Assembly: GCA_942493095.1 (NCBI GenBank)
Contig: OW818675.1
Span: 930,001-962,000, forward strand
DNA: 32,000 nt
Source: Candidatus Electronema halotolerans
GTDB taxonomy: Bacteria; Desulfobacterota; Desulfobulbia; Desulfobulbales; Desulfobulbaceae
Direction: 5' to 3'
The notes beneath the pieces were generated by a model. It saw only the letters and a program-made list of their open reading frames with translations, was not told where the DNA came from and searched no databases. Below are positions 6,625 to 30,633 of this stretch, piece after piece (within the stretch, counting starts at the first letter, position 1; every line of letters starts with the position of its first letter). The position numbers were made by a program, and so were the translations under genes.

Positions 6625-7902
6625 CTACAGCAGCCCCTCCACCCGCTTCATGGCGCAGAAGTCGCCGCACATGGTGCAGACTCCCTTGTCCGCAGGCTGC
6701 GAGGACTCGCGGTAGGCCCGCGCCTTGTCCGGGTCAATGGCAAGGGCGAACTGGCCTTCCCAGTCCAAGCTGCGCCGCGCCTTGCTCATGGCATGATCAA
6801 GTTCGATGGCTCCGGGCAGTCCCTTGGCTATGTCGCCTGCATGGGCGGCAATCTTGGAGGCCATGATGCCCTCTTTCACGTCATCAGCAGAGGGCAGGCG
6901 CAGATGCTCTGCCGGGGTGACATAGCAGAGGAAGTCGGCCCCGTGCATGGCTGCCAGTGCCCCGCCAATGGCCGAGGTGATGTGATCGTAGCCAGGGGCA
7001 ATGTCTGTCACCAAGGGGCCGAGGACATAGAACGGCGCGTCATGACAGAGCTTCTTTTGCAGCTTCATGTTCATCTCCACCTCGTGCAGCGGCACATGAC
7101 CCGGCCCTTCAATCATCACCTGCACATTGTGCGCCCAAGCCCGCTTGGTCAGCTCGCCAAGGGTGATCAGCTCCTCAATCTGGGGCGCGTCGGTGGAATC
7201 CTTGACCGCGCCAGGCCGCAAACCGTCGCCAAGGCTGATGCAGACATCGTGCCGCTCGCAGATGGCCAGCAAACGGTCAAAGTGCTCATAAAAAGGATTC
7301 TCCTGCCCGGTCTTGGCCATCCACTCGAAGAGAATTGAGCCGCCCCGGCTGACAATGCCGCAGAGACGGGGATTGGCGCGCAGGCTTTGGGCGCACTTGC
7401 TGGTCAGGCCAGCGTGAATGGTGATGAAGTCAATACCGTTCTCCGCATGAATCTCCACGGTCTTGAACCAGTCCTCAATGGTGATCTCGGCAGTGGGCTT
7501 GCCAGTCCGGGTCAGGGTGTCGTAAATCGGCACTGTGCCGATCATTAGCGGCACTTCCGCCACCAGCCGCTTGCGGAAGCCCTCTGTATCGCCGGACACG
7601 CTCAAGTCCATGACCCCGTCCGCCTTGTGCTGCACAGCCAGCCGGGCCTTGTTCATCTCTGACTCAAAGGAGCAGACATCCTTGGACACGCCCAAATTGA
7701 CATTGATCTTGGTCTTCAGCCCTGCCCCGACTCCGGCGGCCTTGAGGCAGCGATGATGCTTGTTGGCCGGAATGGCGATCCGGCCCTGCGCCAGCCGCAT
7801 CATAAGGTCTTCTTTGCTGATCGGCTCGGTGCGCAGCACCTCCTCCATCTGCGGGGTAAGGATGCCCTTGCGGGCCGCGTCCATCTGGGTCGTATAAGTC
7901 AT
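6625..7902 (-). CDS. thiC: Phosphomethylpyrimidine synthase ThiC (short, ~425-aa form)
   Basis: Strongly ThiC-like throughout (MTYTTQMDAARKGILTPQMEEV..., DFITIHAG, VMIEGPGHVPL). It carries the C-terminal radical-SAM Cys motif CTMCGDFCAM. It overlaps the thiE stop by 4 nt. Confidence 0.93.
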   Translation of the reverse strand: MTYTTQMDAARKGILTPQMEEVLRTEPISKEDLMMRLAQGRIAIPANKHHRCLKAAGVGAGLKTKINVNLGVSKDVCSFESEMNKARLAVQHKADGVMDLSVSGDTEGFRKRLVAEVPLMIGTVPIYDTLTRTGKPTAEITIEDWFKTVEIHAENGIDFITIHAGLTSKCAQSLRANPRLCGIVSRGGSILFEWMAKTGQENPFYEHFDRLLAICERHDVCISLGDGLRPGAVKDSTDAPQIEELITLGELTKRAWAHNVQVMIEGPGHVPLHEVEMNMKLQKKLCHDAPFYVLGPLVTDIAPGYDHITSAIGGALAAMHGADFLCYVTPAEHLRLPSADDVKEGIMASKIAAHAGDIAKGLPGAIELDHAMSKARRSLDWEGQFALAIDPDKARAYRESSQPADKGVCTMCGDFCAMKRVEGLL

Positions 7903-8945
7903 TCCTTCTCTCCTGAAAAGTTGATAATCTTGTTGATTTCCAGCACTCGCTGGCCGATGTCTTCCGCGCCAATGATTTCTGTGACCAAGCAGACGGTCTT
8001 TGCCCCTTTGGCCAGCACTTGGGGCAGATTGTCCCGCTTGATGCCGCCAATGGCGACAAAGGGAATTGCTGCATTCCTGACTGCCCAGTCCAAATACGCC
8101 AGGCCGACCGGGGCGCAGACATCCTCCTTGGTCTGGGTGCTGAAGATCGGCCCAACCCCGATATAGTCCGCGCCATCTTCAACAGCCTGCTGCGCCTGCT
8201 CCGGGCTGTGGGTTGAGCAGCCAAGGAGCATGTCCGGGGCAATCTTGCGCAGCTCACGGATGGGCAGGTCGTCCTGGCCTTGGTGGATGCCGTCCGCGCC
8301 GACCATCAGGGCAATGTCGGCATAATCGTTGATGATGAAGGGAATGCCCGCATCCTGCGTGATTTGGCGGATGGCAGCGCATTCCTCATACATGGCGCGG
8401 ATGCTCTTGTCCTTCAGCTTTTCCCGGTACTGCATGACCGCAACTCCGCCCTCTGCCATCTGCCGGGCCACTTCCACGTTGCTGCGGCCAAGTGAGAACT
8501 TCTCGCCCAGTATCCCGTAGATGCCCGCAGGCAAGGTGCGGCGGAAGAGCGGCAGGAAGCGGGACTCCAGTTCATAGACGGCAAAACGGAGCTGCTCAAC
8601 CTGCTTGCCCGCCTGATACTCACCCTGCGCCTTGAGCACTTCCTCCAAGACACGGGCCGCCTCCTGCACCCGCTTGCAATTGGCTTGGACTGTGTCGCGC
8701 AGGCCGCTGCGCTGATCAGCAGAATCTTGATTGGAAGTAATCCTGCCAACATCTTCGCCAGCAGCACGGGCAGCGAGCAAAGCCATTTCCCGGCCCTTGA
8801 ACAGCTCGCGCAAGAAATGGCGCAGCTTGCGCAGTTCAGCGGAAAGCTGCTGGTTGTCGAAATGAAAGCGGGCAATGTCCTCCAGCACCCGCAGCCCTTC
8901 AGCGGCCCGGTTGCAGTTTGCATCAAGCAGTCGTGATTCGTTCAT
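7899..8945 (-). CDS. thiE: Thiamine-phosphate synthase ThiE with an N-terminal ~130-aa ThiD2-like extension
   Basis: The C-terminal ~210 aa are typical TMP-TENI/ThiE (GIYGILGEKF..., VMQYREK, IINDYADIALMVGADGIHQGQDDL, GVGPIFSTQTK). The N-terminal LDANCNRAAEGLRVLEDIARF motif is the extension seen on some ThiE proteins. Translationally coupled to thiC. Confidence 0.85.
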   Translation of the reverse strand: MNESRLLDANCNRAAEGLRVLEDIARFHFDNQQLSAELRKLRHFLRELFKGREMALLAARAAGEDVGRITSNQDSADQRSGLRDTVQANCKRVQEAARVLEEVLKAQGEYQAGKQVEQLRFAVYELESRFLPLFRRTLPAGIYGILGEKFSLGRSNVEVARQMAEGGVAVMQYREKLKDKSIRAMYEECAAIRQITQDAGIPFIINDYADIALMVGADGIHQGQDDLPIRELRKIAPDMLLGCSTHSPEQAQQAVEDGADYIGVGPIFSTQTKEDVCAPVGLAYLDWAVRNAAIPFVAIGGIKRDNLPQVLAKGAKTVCLVTEIIGAEDIGQRVLEINKIINFSGEKE

Positions 8946-26085: not shown

Positions 26086-27153
26086 ATGGCGCGTTTGAAA
26101 CTCCCTGACCTTGCCGTCAGCACCGGCATCGTTCTTGGTGCGGGGGCAGTGGTTCTGACTCTGCTCGGCAATCCGACCAATTCCGGCATTTGCATCTCCT
26201 GTTTTTTGGAGAATTTGGCTGGCTCGCTCCAGATGCACGACAGCCTGCGCATGAGTTATGTCAGGCCGGAACTGCTCGGTTTTTTGCTCGGCTCCTTTGT
26301 CACTGCCAAGAAGATGCGCCGCTTCCGGGTCACGGGCGGCTCATCGCCGCTGATCCGCTTTTTGCTCGGCTTGTTCATGATCGTCGGCTGCGGCATTTTT
26401 ATTGGCTGTCCGATCAAAATGATTTTGCGCTTGGCCGCAGGCGACCTGACCGCAATTGCCGCCCTGCTCGGCCTGATGTTTGGCATCTGGCTGGGAGGCC
26501 GCTACATCCGGGCTGGTTCCGTGTTGGATCGGGATAAGGAGCTGCCGCAAATCAACGGCTACATTTTGCCCGGCATTGGCCTGCTCTTGCTGCTTTTTGT
26601 TCTGCTCAAACCGAGCTTTATTGTCCAAGGAGCCACTGGCCCAGGGGCGCAACATGCCAATCTCTGGATTTCGTTAGCTGTTGGGCTGCTGATCGGCGGC
26701 ATGGCCCAGCGTTCTGGTCTCTGCATCACTGGCGGCCTGCGCAACTTCTTTCTTTTCAAAGAGAAAACCCTGCTCTGGGGCATTGTTGCCGCCTTTGCAT
26801 CAGCCTTTTTTGTCTCTCTGATCAGCGGTCAATTCAATCTTGGTTTTTACGATCAGCCGGGTGCGCATCCTGACAATCTGTGGACGTTTCTGGCCATGGT
26901 GCTGGTCGGTTTGGCCGCAGTGATTGTTGATGGCTGCCCGTTCCGCCAGCTCATCAAGGCGGGACAGGGTGATGTGGACGCAGGACTGACCTGCTTTGGC
27001 ATGTTGACCGGCGCGGCGTTTGTGGTAAGCTGGCAGCTCCGCAGCACTTCTGCCGGGCCGGAATTCAACGGCAAGATTGCCACGCTGGCCGGACTGATCT
27101 TCTGTCTGACTGTGGTGCTGGCGTATCGCAGGAAATCTGCGGCAGCACGGTGA
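26086..27153 (+). CDS. yedE: YedE-family putative selenium/sulfur-compound transport membrane protein
   Basis: 355 aa and polytopic, with YedE-family Cys motifs (NSGICISCFLENLAG, RSGLCITGGLRNF, VDGCPFRQL). The ATG follows the upstream stop with no gap. Confidence 0.8.
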   Translation: MARLKLPDLAVSTGIVLGAGAVVLTLLGNPTNSGICISCFLENLAGSLQMHDSLRMSYVRPELLGFLLGSFVTAKKMRRFRVTGGSSPLIRFLLGLFMIVGCGIFIGCPIKMILRLAAGDLTAIAALLGLMFGIWLGGRYIRAGSVLDRDKELPQINGYILPGIGLLLLLFVLLKPSFIVQGATGPGAQHANLWISLAVGLLIGGMAQRSGLCITGGLRNFFLFKEKTLLWGIVAAFASAFFVSLISGQFNLGFYDQPGAHPDNLWTFLAMVLVGLAAVIVDGCPFRQLIKAGQGDVDAGLTCFGMLTGAAFVVSWQLRSTSAGPEFNGKIATLAGLIFCLTVVLAYRRKSAAAR

Positions 27154-27261
27154 AGTTGACTATGCGGTGGACTTCACAAATTCATCTGTTCAACACCCGC
27201 CTTTGTGATGGTGATAGCAAAAGGCGACTTCAATTCTTCACCACATTACATTGAGTAAATT

Positions 27262-27468
27262 ATGAGTACAGGTACAGTGAAGTGGTTTAATGCGGACAAA
27301 GGCTTTGGGTTTATTACTCCAGACGACGGAGGTAAAGACCTGTTTGTCCATCACTCAGAAATCAAGACTGGCGGCGGTTATGCCACGCTCAACGATGGCC
27401 AGAAGGTTGAGTTTGAAGCAGGGCAGGGTAAAAAAGGGCCATGTGCAAATAATGTCAGATCGTTGTAA
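27262..27468 (+). CDS. csp: Cold-shock protein (CspA family)
   Basis: [34 protein letters not shown] carries RNP1 (KGFGFI) and RNP2 (LFVHH). Length 68 aa. GC is lower than the flanking core genes. Confidence 0.95.
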
Positions 27469-27563
27469 TCCGGCGGCATAAGCACATATCCGGCAATCAA
27501 GCCGAGCAGTTAATAGAGGCGCGTTTGCTGCGCACATTGCAACGCGCAGCTTTAATCTTATAC

Positions 27564-27608
27564 CGTTAAGAGTGGTGATCGTTTTGCGCCCACTCTTAAC
27601 GATTTTTT
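27564..27608 (+). terminator. Rho-independent terminator after csp
   Basis: 12-bp perfect stem cgttaagagtgg (27564-27575) / ccactcttaacg (27590-27601), 14-nt loop, then a-tttttt. A smaller hairpin gctgcgc/gcgcagc at 27527-27550 precedes it. Confidence 0.8.
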
Positions 27609-27769
27609 GCAAGCAATGAGTTATTTTTTTAGGCTCTCCGAGTTTTTCTGTGGTTGACAAAATCGGGTGGTGCCCCTGTTGAGTGTTGCTGTCTCGAAAA
27701 TTATGTGATACCGATTGGTTAGCATTACTGAGACAACTACTCCGTAAAGTGAGTTGTGGATTCAACTCG

Positions 27770-27927
27770 CAAGTGCAACTTTTTTTGGTTATCCAAAAAG
27801 CATAGGTTGGCTGGCACTTTGAATACTTCATGTAAATTTTCAATTATTTTCTCTTAGTTAGCGACAAAAGCAAAGTTGTGACACTCCCGTAACTGCCTTT
27901 TCTTGCAACCAAAAAAAGTTGCACTTG
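27770..27927. repeat. 158-bp AT-rich element bounded by 21-bp perfect inverted repeats (MITE-like or long cruciform)
   Basis: caagtgcaactttttttggtt (27770-27790) is the exact reverse complement of aaccaaaaaaagttgcacttg (27907-27927). Weaker complementarity (about 8/12) continues ~11 nt outward. No ORF is credible inside it. It lies 22 nt upstream of the yedE remnant. Confidence 0.85.
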
Positions 27928-27948
27928 GAACTTGAATTCACCGTTTGA

Positions 27949-28062
27949 ATGCTGACCAGCGCGGCCTTTGTCGTGAGCTGGCAGCTCCGCAGTAGCTCCG
28001 GTCGCCGGACCGGAGTTCAACGACAGAATTTTCACTCTGGTTGGGCTGATTGCGTCTCATTA
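27949..28062 (+). pseudogene. yedE: Frameshifted, truncated duplicate of the yedE 3' end
   Basis: Aligns by hand to 27001-27112: 39/44 identical over the first 44 nt and about three quarters overall. It translates as MLTSAAFVVSWQLRSS, then after a 4-nt insertion as AGPEFNDRIFTLVGLI. Intact yedE reads MLTGAAFVVSWQLRSTSAGPEFNGKIATLAGLI. The last ~14 yedE codons are missing. Confidence 0.8.
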
Positions 28063-28069
28063 TAACGAA

Positions 28070-28726
28070 ATGATCCAGATCGATATATTTTGTAGACAGT
28101 GTCAAAAAAATCATCATCAACTTGTGAATGAAAAAGAGTCAATTTCAATACAATGCGAATCTTGTGGAGCTGCGCTTGCATCTATTTCTCCAATTAACGG
28201 ATATGTATACATTCTATCGAATCCATGTATGCCAAATTTAGTCAAGATAGGGTTTACTACACGAAATATTTACGAAAGGATTTCTGAACTTAATTCTTCA
28301 AGCGGCATACCTGAACCTTTTGTGATTGAAGCTGCTTTTTGTAGTATCAACCCTAAAAAGGATGAACAAATAATCCATGCTGAATTAGATAAAAATCGTA
28401 CTAATAGAAATCGTGAGTTTTTTCAATTTGAACCGCTTGATGCAATTGATAAAATAGTAAAAATACTTGAAAAGCAACCTGATTATATTGGGACGAACAG
28501 CATGGTTAACTGTGAAAGACTTCTTCAGAGAAAAAAAGAAGAAGAAAGAATTTTTAAGAAGAAACAGAATTATTTTTTATCTCAAGGCATATTTGCAGAA
28601 GACCCAGGAAGATCAGTTGCTATGTATTCATTTAAATGTATTGGATGTAAAAATAGATTTTATTCCAAATATCCTAAAAACAATAGAACTGCTTGCCCTT
28701 TCTGCTTTTCTTGTGAAATTGAATGA
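28070..28726 (+). CDS. T5orf172/MUG113 (GIY-YIG-like) domain protein flanked by N- and C-terminal zinc ribbons
   Basis: GYVYILSNPCMPNLVKIGFTTRNIYERISELNSS...PFVIEAAF...IIHAELDKNRTNRNREFFQF fits the T5orf172 pattern. The N-terminal zinc ribbon is CRQC...CESC and the C-terminal one is CIGC...CPFC. GC is ~30% (18/60 in a sampled stretch) against ~55-60% in the flanks. Confidence 0.75.
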   Translation: MIQIDIFCRQCQKNHHQLVNEKESISIQCESCGAALASISPINGYVYILSNPCMPNLVKIGFTTRNIYERISELNSSSGIPEPFVIEAAFCSINPKKDEQIIHAELDKNRTNRNREFFQFEPLDAIDKIVKILEKQPDYIGTNSMVNCERLLQRKKEEERIFKKKQNYFLSQGIFAEDPGRSVAMYSFKCIGCKNRFYSKYPKNNRTACPFCFSCEIE

Positions 28727-28863
28727 AAAAATTATGAAATATATTAACTGGATTAAAACATAGCGTTGTTTTTAAAACATGATTTGGACGGCATGCCGCT
28801 TCATGAAATTCCGCACAAGATCATTTATCTGTGCCCTAAATATGTGGACAAAATACAATCATC

Positions 28864-29409
28864 ATGAACTGGTTCAAAAAAAAGGAAAAGCCGCAGGAGC
28901 CGGAAAAGGAAGAGGTCACACGCGGCCTGCTGATCTTTGCTCACCCGACCACAGTCATCGCGGTGGAGGAACTGCTCAAGGACGAGGGATATAAAATTCG
29001 GGTGGTCAGTCCGCCGCCTGCCTACCGCACCGGCTGCGACTTGAGCGTGGAATTTCCGCTGGAAGCGGAAGCCGCCATCACTGAGCTGCTCAATGCAGTC
29101 AAGCTGCATCCGCTTGATGTGGTGCCGATCACCTCGGAAGGCATGGAGCCGCTTCAGTTTGTCCGCAAAAAATGGTATGGCAAATACCTGATGGTCCGGG
29201 CGGCCAACATGAAGATCACCGTAGATACAGAGACCAAGGTCATTGTCAATATCTCTGGCGGCGGCTGCCCGGACGTGCCCTATCTTGCCACGACCATGAT
29301 CGGTAAGCGGCTTGACGAGGCTCCTGCCCCGGACGAAGTCGGCTTCTCCCTTTGCGCCTATTCCCTCAACACTGCCCGGGAAGAGATGATCCGGGAAATC
29401 GGAGCATAA
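28864..29409 (+). CDS. DUF3343 (putative Se/S carrier-like) domain fused to an unidentified ~90-aa C-terminal domain with a GGGCPDVP motif
   Basis: Residues ~20-85 (GLLIFAHPTTVIAVEELLKDEGYKIRVVSPPPAYRTGCDLSVEFPLEAEAAITELL) match the DUF3343 layout, including its conserved Cys. The C-terminal half (KWYGKYLMVRAANMKITVD...NISGGGCPDVPYLATTMIGKRL) is not recognised. Confidence 0.6.
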   Translation: MNWFKKKEKPQEPEKEEVTRGLLIFAHPTTVIAVEELLKDEGYKIRVVSPPPAYRTGCDLSVEFPLEAEAAITELLNAVKLHPLDVVPITSEGMEPLQFVRKKWYGKYLMVRAANMKITVDTETKVIVNISGGGCPDVPYLATTMIGKRLDEAPAPDEVGFSLCAYSLNTAREEMIREIGA

Positions 29410-29411
29410 TC

Positions 29412-30281
29412 ATGCTGTTGTTAGTTGGTGCGGTTCCTGCTGACCGCCTCCCCCTGATCATCGGCCCGGTCTCGCTCACTGACCGGGGCATCAAGATTGA
29501 CGGTCATGAGCTGCCCATCAACCGGGGCAATGAGGCCATGATGAAGGCTGCCTGCCTGATCTGCCAGGAATACGGCGTGGAGCCGCCGGTCGGCATGGTG
29601 GCAGGCGACATTGGCAAGCGCGAAGGCAGCGAGGCAATTTACAAGCACTTGGCCGAGCATCTGCCGACGATGGGGGTCAAGGTGATGACCCTGCATTATG
29701 TGATGCCTGATCTCAAGCTGAATAAGAAGGTGCTGGCCACGGTCGAGACCATGAAGGAAAGCAGGCCTGCTCTGATTGCCGACGCGGGCAGCATGTATGT
29801 GGCCAAGGCGGGCGGCGATGCCAAAATGTACGATGTTTTCACCCCGGACATTGGCGAGGCCACCTTTCTGGCTGATGAGAAGGCCGATCATCCCGCCTAC
29901 ACACGCGGTTTCATCTTCAACATGGAAGATGACGTGCCGGAGCTGATCCGCCGGGCATACATGGGCGGCAACGCGCCCAAGACCATGTTTGTCAAAGGGG
30001 CAGTGGATTATGTCTGCCAAGACGGCGAGATTGTTGACACCATTGCCGAGCCGAGCATTGAGACGATGGAGCCGATTGGCGGCACGGGTGATTTGATCAC
30101 CGGCATGATCAGCGGCCTGATGCACGCTGGCCGCAGTCCGCTCTTAGCCTGCCGCATTGCCGGACGGGTCAACCGGGCTGCTGGCGAGCTGGCCAATCCG
30201 ACCCCGGCCACGCAGGTGGAGGAAATCCTCCGCTGCCTGCCCAAAGCTCTTGCCAAGGTGGAAAAGGAGCTGGGGCTGTGA
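29412..30281 (+). CDS. Stand-alone YjeF_C-like (ribokinase-fold, NAD(P)HX dehydratase-type) protein
   Basis: VFTPDIGEATFLA and EPIGGTGDLITGMISGLMHAG resemble the TPHxGE and GxGDxLxG motifs of YjeF C-terminal domains. ATG 29412 lies 2 nt after the upstream stop. The track start 29352 overlaps the previous gene. Confidence 0.55.
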   Translation: MLLLVGAVPADRLPLIIGPVSLTDRGIKIDGHELPINRGNEAMMKAACLICQEYGVEPPVGMVAGDIGKREGSEAIYKHLAEHLPTMGVKVMTLHYVMPDLKLNKKVLATVETMKESRPALIADAGSMYVAKAGGDAKMYDVFTPDIGEATFLADEKADHPAYTRGFIFNMEDDVPELIRRAYMGGNAPKTMFVKGAVDYVCQDGEIVDTIAEPSIETMEPIGGTGDLITGMISGLMHAGRSPLLACRIAGRVNRAAGELANPTPATQVEEILRCLPKALAKVEKELGL

Positions 30282-30469
30282 GCCGGATGCAGTTCACTGC
30301 TGTGGTCGAATATTGCAAAGACATAGGTCTCTATGTGGGCTATATGCCGCAGTTTCCCGATGCGCACTCGCAAGGGGAAACGCTTGATGAACTGAACCGG
30401 CTGCTTGAAGACGGAGAGCCTTCGTTCAGTTCTGAGTTTGTCGGCACCCAGCAGATTGCCATAGCGTGA
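30278..30469 (+). CDS. hicB: HicB-family (UPF0150-like) antitoxin
   Basis: FTAVVEYCKDIGLYVGYMPQFPDAHSQGETLDELNRLLED fits small HicB antitoxins. GTG 30278 lies 8 nt after AGGAG and overlaps the upstream stop. ATG 30287 is an alternative start. Confidence 0.65.
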   Translation: MSRMQFTAVVEYCKDIGLYVGYMPQFPDAHSQGETLDELNRLLEDGEPSFSSEFVGTQQIAIA

Positions 30470-30633
30470 AGGGAAATATGCCTGCCCTTTCGCACAAGCA
30501 GTTCCGCCACGCTGACGGACGGGCAACCACCGTTCCGTTGCATCAAGGAAGAGACATTTCTCCGATTCTCCTGCGGCAGCTTGCACAAGACATCAGCATC
30601 TCGGTTGAAGAGCTGCTCAATGCAGGAGCCTGA
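30466..30633 (+). pseudogene. hicA: N-terminally shortened HicA-family toxin remnant (51-55 codons, below the track cutoff)
   Basis: Hand translation gives (VKGN)MPALSHKQFRHADGRATTVPLHQGRDISPILLRQLAQDISISVEELLNAGA. This matches the HicA C-terminal core (GSHxxFxHPDGRxxTVPxHxGRDI...). About 15 N-terminal residues before the SH motif appear to be missing. GTG 30466 overlaps the hicB stop. Confidence 0.5.

Follow-up and report, generated by a model that had tools for sequence, protein, structure and literature searches.

The gene at positions 28070..28726 (+ strand) of a 32,000-nucleotide (nt) stretch of Candidatus Electronema halotolerans DNA (contig OW818675.1, positions 930,001 to 962,000; the whole stretch is hereafter called the window, and positions are counted from its first letter) encodes a protein of 218 amino acids (aa), starting at an ATG, in which a T5orf172 (GIY-YIG-like) core is enclosed by two zinc ribbons. 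Its orthologues, its large family and the purifying selection acting on it indicate that it is a genuine gene; by sequence comparison it belongs to an uncharacterized two-ribbon subfamily of the T5orf172 family. It has been inherited vertically within a chromosomal gap that is a hotspot for variable cargo. The best reading of its product, held with middling confidence, is a single-gene soluble nuclease that would act in phage or mobile-element conflict or defense, with nuclease activity, DNA as the substrate and the defense role all predicted from conserved residues and homology. The original prediction, made from the letters of the DNA, had offered a homing cassette aimed at the 3′ end of yedE and, as an alternative, a single-gene nuclease effector, and it is the alternative that appears to fit best.

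Domain architecture and family assignment

The host is a cable bacterium, in which the gene (NCBI GCAAIG_04435, protein identical to the window product) lies on a 3.2-Mb contig, and only one copy was detected for the E. halotolerans genome. The guanine-plus-cytosine (GC) content is 0.30–0.34 over 28100–28900 vs 0.55–0.62 in both flanks, and the open reading frame (ORF) itself is ∼30% GC, consistent with the earlier view of the gene as foreign-looking. Both CxxC...CxxC ribbons, the core and the low GC content are present where the original prediction had placed them.

The N-terminal zinc ribbon, C8-x2-C11...C29-x2-C32 (28091..28165, + strand), sits in a four-strand beta region of an AlphaFold2 model of the protein (12 sequences; predicted local distance difference test score, pLDDT, 86; predicted template modeling score, pTM, 0.55), with strands at residues 2–8, 13–19, 25–28 and 35–39, the fourth lying just past 28091..28165; in profile searches it resembles S27e, IF2-beta and FmdB-type ribbons only weakly and below threshold. 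The T5orf172 core (28199..28465, + strand; aa 44–132) contains G44, Y47, K59-I60-G61, R65, R70, E99, H103 and E116-F117. It matches Pfam T5orf172 (PF10544) with an expect value (E) of 1.4e-16 and 61.3 bits (cutoff 20) over profile positions 1–99 of 101, and Pfam MUG113 (PF13455) with E 1.8e-14 and 54.5 bits (cutoff 22.3), so that the family membership first proposed from motifs is borne out by both profiles above their cutoffs, and the predicted structure matches T5orf172 models as well. In the model the alpha/beta core is connected by a long charged helix of 30 residues (aa 142–171) to a small C-terminal zinc ribbon, C190-x2-C193...C209-x2-C212 (28637..28705, + strand), delimited from its conserved cysteines and from the model. 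The linker and C-terminal ribbon are basic (isoelectric point ∼9), the protein is ∼25 kDa in size, and no transmembrane segment was found in it, the maximum 19-residue Kyte-Doolittle hydropathy being 1.17. A Foldseek search of BFVD returned 118 matches at E ≤ 1e-3, almost all of them T5orf172/BRO-type viral proteins, with ‘T5 Orf172’ at the top (E 4e-10) and many matches having root mean square deviations of 1.1–2.8 Å over ∼90 residues; a sequence search of the PDB found no chain similar to the window protein.

Among 47 two-ribbon members (26–82% identity), C8, C29, C32, C190, C193, C209 and C212 are invariant, as are G44, Y47, K59, G61, R70, E99 and E116 of the core, and C11, R65 and H103 are conserved in at least 90%. 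Among these are the catalytic-type residues of the family, a Tyr in the first strand (Y47), an Arg in helix 1 (R70) and a metal-binding Glu (E116). Lys59 stands where the Tyr of YIG would be. A Glu of the T5orf172 nuclease Odn is needed for cleavage, as judged from mutant E180A (PMC8263062), and the catalytic Glu of SNIPE is likewise essential for cleavage, as judged from mutant E414A (PMC13190303); the Arg and Glu of the window protein correspond, in a match made by motif and not by structural superposition, to residues required in these two enzymes. We infer that the window protein probably has endonuclease activity, with its ribbons binding nucleic acid.

The same residues bear on the possibility that the gene encodes a domesticated or relic nuclease, whose main role would be regulation by binding to specific DNA sequences, with cleavage slight or absent. 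Such a protein would have a precedent in PLE CapR, a T5orf172-related repressor with a CxxC...CxC zinc finger (PMC10448857), and the two conserved ribbons, which imply strong nucleic-acid binding, as well as purifying selection at a fixed locus, would suit it. The invariance of Y47, R70 and E116 in 47 divergent members, however, would not be expected if catalysis were dispensable, and no obvious regulated partner gene is conserved alongside; a regulatory role is accordingly considered improbable.

An exhaustive profile search returned 15,492 proteins at E ≤ 1e-3, of which 185 reach 1e-30. In a set of 160 proteins, comprising the first 12 homologues and the top representative matches, the N-terminal ribbon is present in 126 and the two-ribbon form in 57. 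With a profile built on the 47 two-ribbon members, at least 950 proteins score E ≤ 1e-10; almost all come from metagenomes, with ‘GIY-YIG nuclease family protein’ the most specific name they bear. Searches of phage, plasmid and IMG/VR sequences found no full-length two-ribbon relative, their matches being centered on the core; tblastn against phage records, together with a scan of viral contigs, detected mainly the core (residues ∼41–147), with two matches extending further, and no phage record in that comparison covers 80% of the window protein. The earlier remark that the double-ribbon architecture is uncharacterized holds for the exact two-ribbon form, of which there is neither a characterized member nor a solved structure, but the architecture is less unusual than the remark implied, since a zinc finger combined with T5orf172 has been described in phage homing genes (PMC10448857) and more than a third of the 160 proteins share the two-ribbon form.

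The best-scoring PADLOC model for the window protein is PDC-S57 (E 4.6e-29, protein aa 43–160), the PADLOC PD-Lambda-1 nuclease domain is also matched (E 4e-10), and the protein matches PHROG 16524 with E 1e-30. The gene is nevertheless not assigned to the SNIPE, PDC-S57 or homing-endonuclease classes, for which the individual comparisons are given below.

Vertical inheritance and purifying selection

Four assemblies carry an orthologue at the same place, L001, L002 and L003 with 82% aa identity and L089 with 85%. They consist of one NCBI genome assembly, two Logan run assemblies and one Joint Genome Institute (JGI) metagenome contig, and probably come from two or three related lineages. Each orthologue lies upstream of the same Se/S-carrier, Carb_kinase and diacylglycerol kinase (DAGK) genes, and all begin MI(Q/H/L)I. 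Synonymous divergence (dS) and its ratio to nonsynonymous divergence (dN/dS) were calculated by the Nei-Gojobori method for the pairs window/L001, window/L089 and L001/L089. For the T5orf172 gene the dS values are 0.39, 0.36 and 0.25, respectively, with dN/dS of 0.20–0.25 (∼0.24), and for the flanking Se_S_carrier, Carb_kinase and DAGK genes the ranges are, in the same order of pairs, 0.32–0.42, 0.34–0.38 and 0.41–0.70, with dN/dS of 0.01–0.10; only in the L001/L089 pair is the T5orf172 dS somewhat below that of the flanks. Because the dS of the T5orf172 gene is approximately that of its flanks, inheritance has been vertical and the gene is no recent arrival. Purifying selection on it is looser than that on the core genes, and such divergence is not what a selfish gene that had homed recently or was decaying would show.

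The DNA between the orthologue and the Se/S-carrier gene (PF11823; 28864..29409, + strand; Pfam E 1.4e-16), which forms the right border of the variable gap, differs among these lineages. Homology between the window and L001/L089 stops ∼4 nt past the T5orf172 stop codon and restarts ∼10 nt before the Se/S-carrier ATG; the Se/S-carrier protein is 98.9% identical in L001, and homology to the compared Electronema loci resumes at 28847–28863. The window has here a low-GC spacer of 137 nt (28727..28863, no strand assigned) in place of the DUF6557 (with or without UPF0175/DUF3368) genes of its close relatives, and no trace of DUF6557 was found in it. In L001 a DUF6557 gene lies between the T5orf172 orthologue and the Se/S-carrier gene, and in L089 the same interval holds DUF6557, UPF0175 and the stump of a DUF3368/PIN gene. 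The closest further locus is L139, whose Se/S-carrier is 98% identical; immediately ahead of that gene it has a complete DUF3368/PIN gene, and its sequence is cut off 562 nt upstream of the Se/S-carrier gene. The simplest history is an ancestral islet of yedE remnant, T5orf172, DUF6557, UPF0175 and DUF3368 that was later trimmed by deletions, and T5orf172 is the part retained in every lineage where this ancestral stretch is visible.

The DUF6557 gene directly follows the orthologue at 1078–1662 in L001 and 732–1319 in L089 (Pfam E 4.9e-37), with a dN/dS of ∼0.36 between the two. It stands beside T5orf172 only in L001–L003 and L089; neither the window nor any of the other family contexts examined has it. 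A two-gene system was considered and rejected on this distribution of the DUF6557 partner; in addition, the ORFs upstream of the relatives P0006 and P0007 are mutually unrelated and have no Pfam match.

These data bear directly on the proposal that the gene is a free-standing homing endonuclease, which would cut a gene-less allele at the yedE / Se-S-carrier junction or the 3′ end of yedE, or close by, whereupon repair would copy the gene and leave duplicates of the yedE 3′ end. The small stand-alone ORF of 218 aa with a T5orf172 core and two zinc ribbons has a hallmark of homing genes, the unit homologous with L001 (28059–28730) is little more than the ORF, and in L001–L003 the gene begins 22 nt past the yedE stop codon. 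However, dS equal to that of the flanks in three lineages indicates that there has been no recent spread, a dN/dS of ∼0.24 at a fixed chromosomal site indicates retention at the level of the host, only a single copy was detected in this genome, and most clusters of the two-ribbon family contain just 1–2 contigs, unlike an expanding element.

The yedE remnant and the cargo hotspot

An intact yedE gene, encoding a putative selenium transporter (26086..27153, + strand; TIGR04112, E 8.5e-119; Pfam Sulf_transp) 84–89% identical in aa sequence to yedE of other Electronema genomes, forms the left border of the variable gap, and a decayed yedE 3′ remnant lies just upstream of the T5orf172 gene (27944..∼28053, + strand). 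The remnant corresponds to approximately aa 305–340, is frameshifted by a 4-nt indel, and is without the last ∼16 codons and the stop. Aligned with the 3′ end of the intact gene, it is 86% identical in its first 49 nt (26996–27044 / 27944–27992, repeat D1) and ∼76–80% overall, and blastn against yedE of other genomes gives 78–82%. Between the window remnant and that of L001 the overlap is ∼40–60 nt, and a hand count gives ∼74% identity over ∼40 nt, which fits neutral decay and is too short to diagnose orthology.

The original prediction correctly described the distal half of the remnant (AGPEFNDRIFTLVGLI...) as lying in the frame of the T5orf172 ORF and leading into its ATG with no intervening stop, and took this seamless join to the host reading frame as meaningful. 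In the ORF frame there is a stop at 27974–27976, followed by AGSSAVAPVAGPEFNDRIFTLVGLIASHYNE up to the ATG at 28070, with no ATG, GTG or TTG between. A 31-codon stretch of the same composition is free of stops in ∼27% of shuffles. In L001–L003 the yedE fragment (aa 327–353) ends at yedE's own TGA, 22 nt ahead of the ATG, and because the remnant in these relatives keeps its own stop, the in-frame join reflects a lineage-specific deletion in which the last ∼16 codons and the stop were lost. An in-frame fusion as a meaningful feature is rejected, given its absence in L001–L003, the lack of an upstream start codon and the frequency with which such an open stretch arises by chance; the junction is accidental and needs no special explanation.

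The distance from the yedE stop to the Se/S-carrier start is 30–100 bp in many Desulfobulbales (e.g., L044, L032, L033, L034 and L049) and 0.9–2.2 kb in nine Electronema genomes (L010–L017, L062) and seven Electronema-like metagenome loci (L140–L145, L159). The longer gaps are mostly of low GC content (0.33–0.46 in the nine genome loci measured), and their cargo differs by locus, including a UPF0175/DUF3368 pair, PIN genes, a DUF3223/HamC-like gene, a methyltransferase-like gene and several unknowns, with a pair of 79-aa and 138-aa genes recurring in several Electronema loci. Between genomes, homology stops at the yedE stop and restarts at the Se/S-carrier start. The T5orf172 gene occupies this site in only three to five related assemblies. 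No clean empty site was found among the other recovered Electronema and Electronema-like loci, which hold different cargo; empty sites occur only in distant Desulfobulbales. At the position of the window T5orf172 gene, L011 (Electronema sp. KV) has a low-GC DUF3223 gene (7743–8390; PADLOC HamC, 8e-64), for which no HamA or HamB partner was seen in the gap.

Fragments of the yedE 3′ end are present also with other cargo and without T5orf172, in L011 (aa 234–319), L014 (aa 307–355), L017 (aa 324–355) and L159 (aa 306–355). Because these fragments start at different codons and are not accompanied by T5orf172, the remnants reflect repeated imprecise replacement at the gap. They most likely come from recombination anchored in yedE, and they are neither a fixed attachment (att) site nor the work of the T5orf172 gene. 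For the homing proposal the fragments without the gene are a further difficulty, and another is that this genome retains an intact yedE 3′ end 950 nt upstream.

Another possibility is that this DNA is the left portion of an island of the integrase type that entered site-specifically at the yedE 3′ end and brought a surrogate end with it, which would make the remnant an att duplication. Many islands target gene 3′ ends, and the direct repeat of the yedE 3′ end (D1) resembles such a duplication. The ORF list and Pfam searches identified no recombinase or integrase between 27154 and 28863, the remnants start at differing yedE positions across genomes, which argues against a fixed crossover site, and the T5orf172 gene lies to the right of the repeat pair and not between its copies. 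Integrase-mediated insertion with att duplication was therefore rejected, for want of a recombinase and in view of the variable remnant starts, and an island of this type is very improbable.

Genomic contexts of relatives

The prediction of a homing cassette invited a survey of homologues for insertion next to yedE, and the non-syntenic relatives (31–61% identity) were found instead in unrelated places. Of ∼9 contexts, one is beside a type I-E CRISPR-Cas system (P0100, which adjoins cas3), approximately four have toxin-antitoxin modules, three have integrases, one is a prophage and one (P0110, among small unknown ORFs) is uninformative. The low-GC island around P0006 also carries IS66, a toxin-antitoxin pair and two tyrosine integrases; P0011 is near a HepT/MNT pair in a toxin-antitoxin-rich island, and P0166 is in another such island; P0188 is in an integrative element with a small terminase (TerS) gene and an integrase; and P0199 stands between an integrase, which immediately precedes it, and a HepT/MNT pair. 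No neighboring gene is common to these contexts, and their pattern is that of a single-gene accessory ‘conflict’ module in mobile and variable DNA.

The prophage member, P0164 (46% identical, full-length and two-ribbon; L133 8001–8636), lies in a lambda-like prophage, on the opposite strand, between the portal gene and the gene for a GpA-type large terminase (TerL). This position is typical of free-standing homing-endonuclease genes and of phage morons.

A classic homing position in P0164 speaks for homing, as does the view that phage T5orf172 genes with zinc-finger modules beside conserved genes are homing genes (PMC10448857). The other relatives examined are not next to yedE, and together with a dS like that of the flanks and yedE remnants unaccompanied by T5orf172 this argues that the gene is not a cassette aimed at the yedE 3′ end; homing is on balance unlikely.

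Alternatively, the gene might encode an addiction-type or toxin-like nuclease that stabilizes the islet or a former mobile element, as the toxin-antitoxin pairs of the hotspot may do. The hotspot is rich in such pairs (UPF0175/DUF3368-PIN, the 79-aa plus 138-aa pair, PIN), relatives often adjoin HepT/MNT, YoeB and DUF4258 modules, and in E. coli a T5orf172 nuclease lacking its tether proves toxic. However, there is no conserved small gene alongside that might serve as an antitoxin; DUF6557 follows the gene in L001/L089 and is absent in the window and other contexts. This explanation has a low probability.

Comparison with known systems and proposed mechanism

The closest described kind to the window gene is the phage T5orf172 homing-endonuclease gene. 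In phages such as ICP1 and the T5-like phages, these genes are regarded as homing-endonuclease genes of the free-standing type, which carry zinc-finger DNA-binding modules and lie beside conserved or essential genes (PMC10448857). The ICP1 and T5-like proteins, Odn (Gp88) and PLE CapR share with the window protein PF10544, the Arg and Glu, the layout of a small core with a Cys zinc finger, and a location in mobile or variable DNA. In the phage proteins the fingers are of the CapR/DUF723 type and often repeated on one side of the core, whereas the window protein bears a single ribbon at either end of the core, with neither DUF723 nor a CapR-like domain matched in Pfam at E ≤ 1. Unlike the phage genes, the window gene lies in a chromosome, apparently as a single copy, is vertically inherited and has no essential phage gene beside it.

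SNIPE (PD-lambda-1), a membrane-bound anti-phage nuclease, provides single-gene direct defense in which a DNA-binding module is joined to a GIY-YIG/T5orf172 core that cuts DNA (PMC13190303). Its nuclease domain is homologous to that of the window protein (PADLOC PD-Lambda-1, profile positions 355–482 of 496), but SNIPE has ∼490 aa with an N-terminal membrane anchor and the DNA/TMP-binding domain DUF4041, whereas the window protein has 218 aa and neither of these, no DUF4041 match being found in Pfam. SNIPE spares its own cell because it is anchored in the membrane and contacts the injection machinery, a means not open to the window protein, and without its transmembrane segment it is toxic in E. 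coli (PMC13190303); because of this toxicity, a soluble relative must limit self-damage otherwise. PDC-S57, a single-gene T5orf172 system that is a computational candidate, has a profile that begins at the core and has neither ribbon of the window protein in common with it; PADLOC sets no curated cutoff for it, and a literature search found no published experimental support.

I-TevI and SegA–G of phage T4 belong to the same superfamily and likewise combine a nuclease core, a linker and a DNA-binding module, and the linker of I-TevI holds a zinc finger. No significant sequence or Foldseek match to I-TevI or SegA–G was found; these are homing enzymes, whereas the window locus is without evidence of homing and the YIG Tyr is replaced by Lys59. 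Slx1, in which a GIY-YIG core is followed by a C-terminal zinc-binding RING, gives the top PDB Foldseek match (6sei_A, probability 0.91, ∼110 aligned columns), but the Slx1 matches are not significant (E 0.1–0.5, template modeling scores ∼0.3), and Slx1, unlike the window protein, is eukaryotic, requires Slx4, acts in DNA repair and is without an N-terminal ribbon.

In the proposed mechanism for a single-gene soluble nuclease, the T5orf172 gene would have been acquired as islet cargo before the split of the E. halotolerans-like lineages and then inherited vertically and retained by selection, as the neighboring DUF6557 gene, the UPF0175/DUF3368 pair and the old yedE 3′ end were deleted; one deletion would have taken the stop codon of the remnant and so produced the accidental in-frame junction. 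The zinc ribbons and basic linker helix would place the protein on nucleic acid, most likely DNA, and the core would cut with Tyr47, Arg65/Arg70 and Glu116. The protein would then be a stand-alone effector against phages or other mobile elements, with self-damage presumably avoided by sequence or structure specificity and not by membrane tethering.

Several observations weigh against this reading of the gene as a defense or conflict nuclease. The context sample (∼9 independent loci, with relatives at 31–61% identity) is too small to support a claim of enrichment in defense islands, and the cargo of the local islet consists of toxin-antitoxin genes and unknowns, with no recognized defense systems. 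The best Foldseek matches in the PDB are the GIY-YIG nucleases Slx1 and UPF0213, and they are weak (E 0.1–1.1); the PDC-S57 match covers only profile positions 5–120 of 212, i.e., the core alone. As SNIPE without its transmembrane segment shows, toxicity can result when a T5orf172 nuclease joined to a DNA-binding module is soluble, and no immunity or targeting mechanism is visible here. The GC content of 30–33% persists after a dS of ∼0.4 without explanation. Finally, the nuclease activity and phage protection attributed to the two-ribbon family are deduced from sequence.

Other features of the window

Between the intact yedE and its remnant lies a cspA-type cold-shock gene (27262..27468, + strand; Pfam CSD, E 5e-28), followed by a hairpin with a T-run, read from the sequence as terminator-like (27564..27608, + strand), which the terminator scan did not call, the loop being longer than 8 nt. 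The block comprising yedE, cspA and hairpin (26900–27608) aligns with L011 (Electronema sp. KV) at 82%. In L011, too, cspA, hairpin and T-run follow the intact yedE (7178–7525; 82% nt and 96% aa identity), and in both the window and L011 the yedE fragments come after the cspA block (27262–27608). The hairpin is partly repeated in L001, where 23 nt of it stand immediately before the yedE remnant (L001 ∼150–172). The arrangement of cspA, hairpin and yedE fragment suggests a shared older rearrangement.

Abutting the remnant is an element of 186 nt (27756..27941, no strand assigned) bounded by 35-nt inverted repeats that are 89% complementary and 116 nt apart (I1). It folds far better than shuffled sequences (z −4.8), has one match elsewhere in the compared loci (24 nt, L011 642–665) and no Rfam match, and it may be similar to a miniature inverted-repeat transposable element (MITE). 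A search for known RNAs in 27100–28900 gave only a sub-threshold chance match, and a promoter and terminator scan of the window region found nothing beyond the expectation from shuffled sequence. A 33-nt A-rich stretch within the T5orf172 ORF (28104–28136) is 76% identical to 28852–28884, which spans the Se/S-carrier start (repeat D2); this is probably a chance match of A-rich sequence.

Downstream of the Se/S-carrier gene there is a Carb_kinase-like gene, and between this gene and the DAGK gene, at 30278–30633, a 63-aa ORF overlaps a 55-aa HicA-toxin-like ORF (Pfam HicA_toxin, 1.8e-07); the corresponding gap is only 25 nt in L001 and 12 nt in L089. The pair looks like a second small lineage-specific insertion, in this case of a toxin-antitoxin-like pair.

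Implications

On present evidence the gene belongs, as an uncharacterized member, to a nuclease family already known, and its setting is ordinary for an accessory gene. A bolder view, which we regard as quite unlikely, is that the at least 950 two-ribbon proteins constitute a widespread, unrecognized group of soluble, autonomous single-gene nucleases whose paired ribbons might recognize invading DNA by its sequence or structure, or else that the enzyme itself breaks the yedE 3′ end and so drives the turnover of cargo and the duplication of fragments. If the enzyme did break the yedE 3′ end, a homing-like process would be operating in the chromosome of a bacterium that is filamentous and multicellular. 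If the protein proves to be active, self-sparing and soluble, a compact single-gene effector of ∼200 aa would join SNIPE, the phage homing types and Odn among the T5orf172 conflict nucleases, and it would be an example of paired zinc ribbons supplying specificity. To our knowledge, almost nothing is known about phage defense or gene flow in cable bacteria. The most useful by-product of the analysis is the yedE / Se-S-carrier locus, a clean natural cargo hotspot bounded by two genes in these uncultured bacteria.

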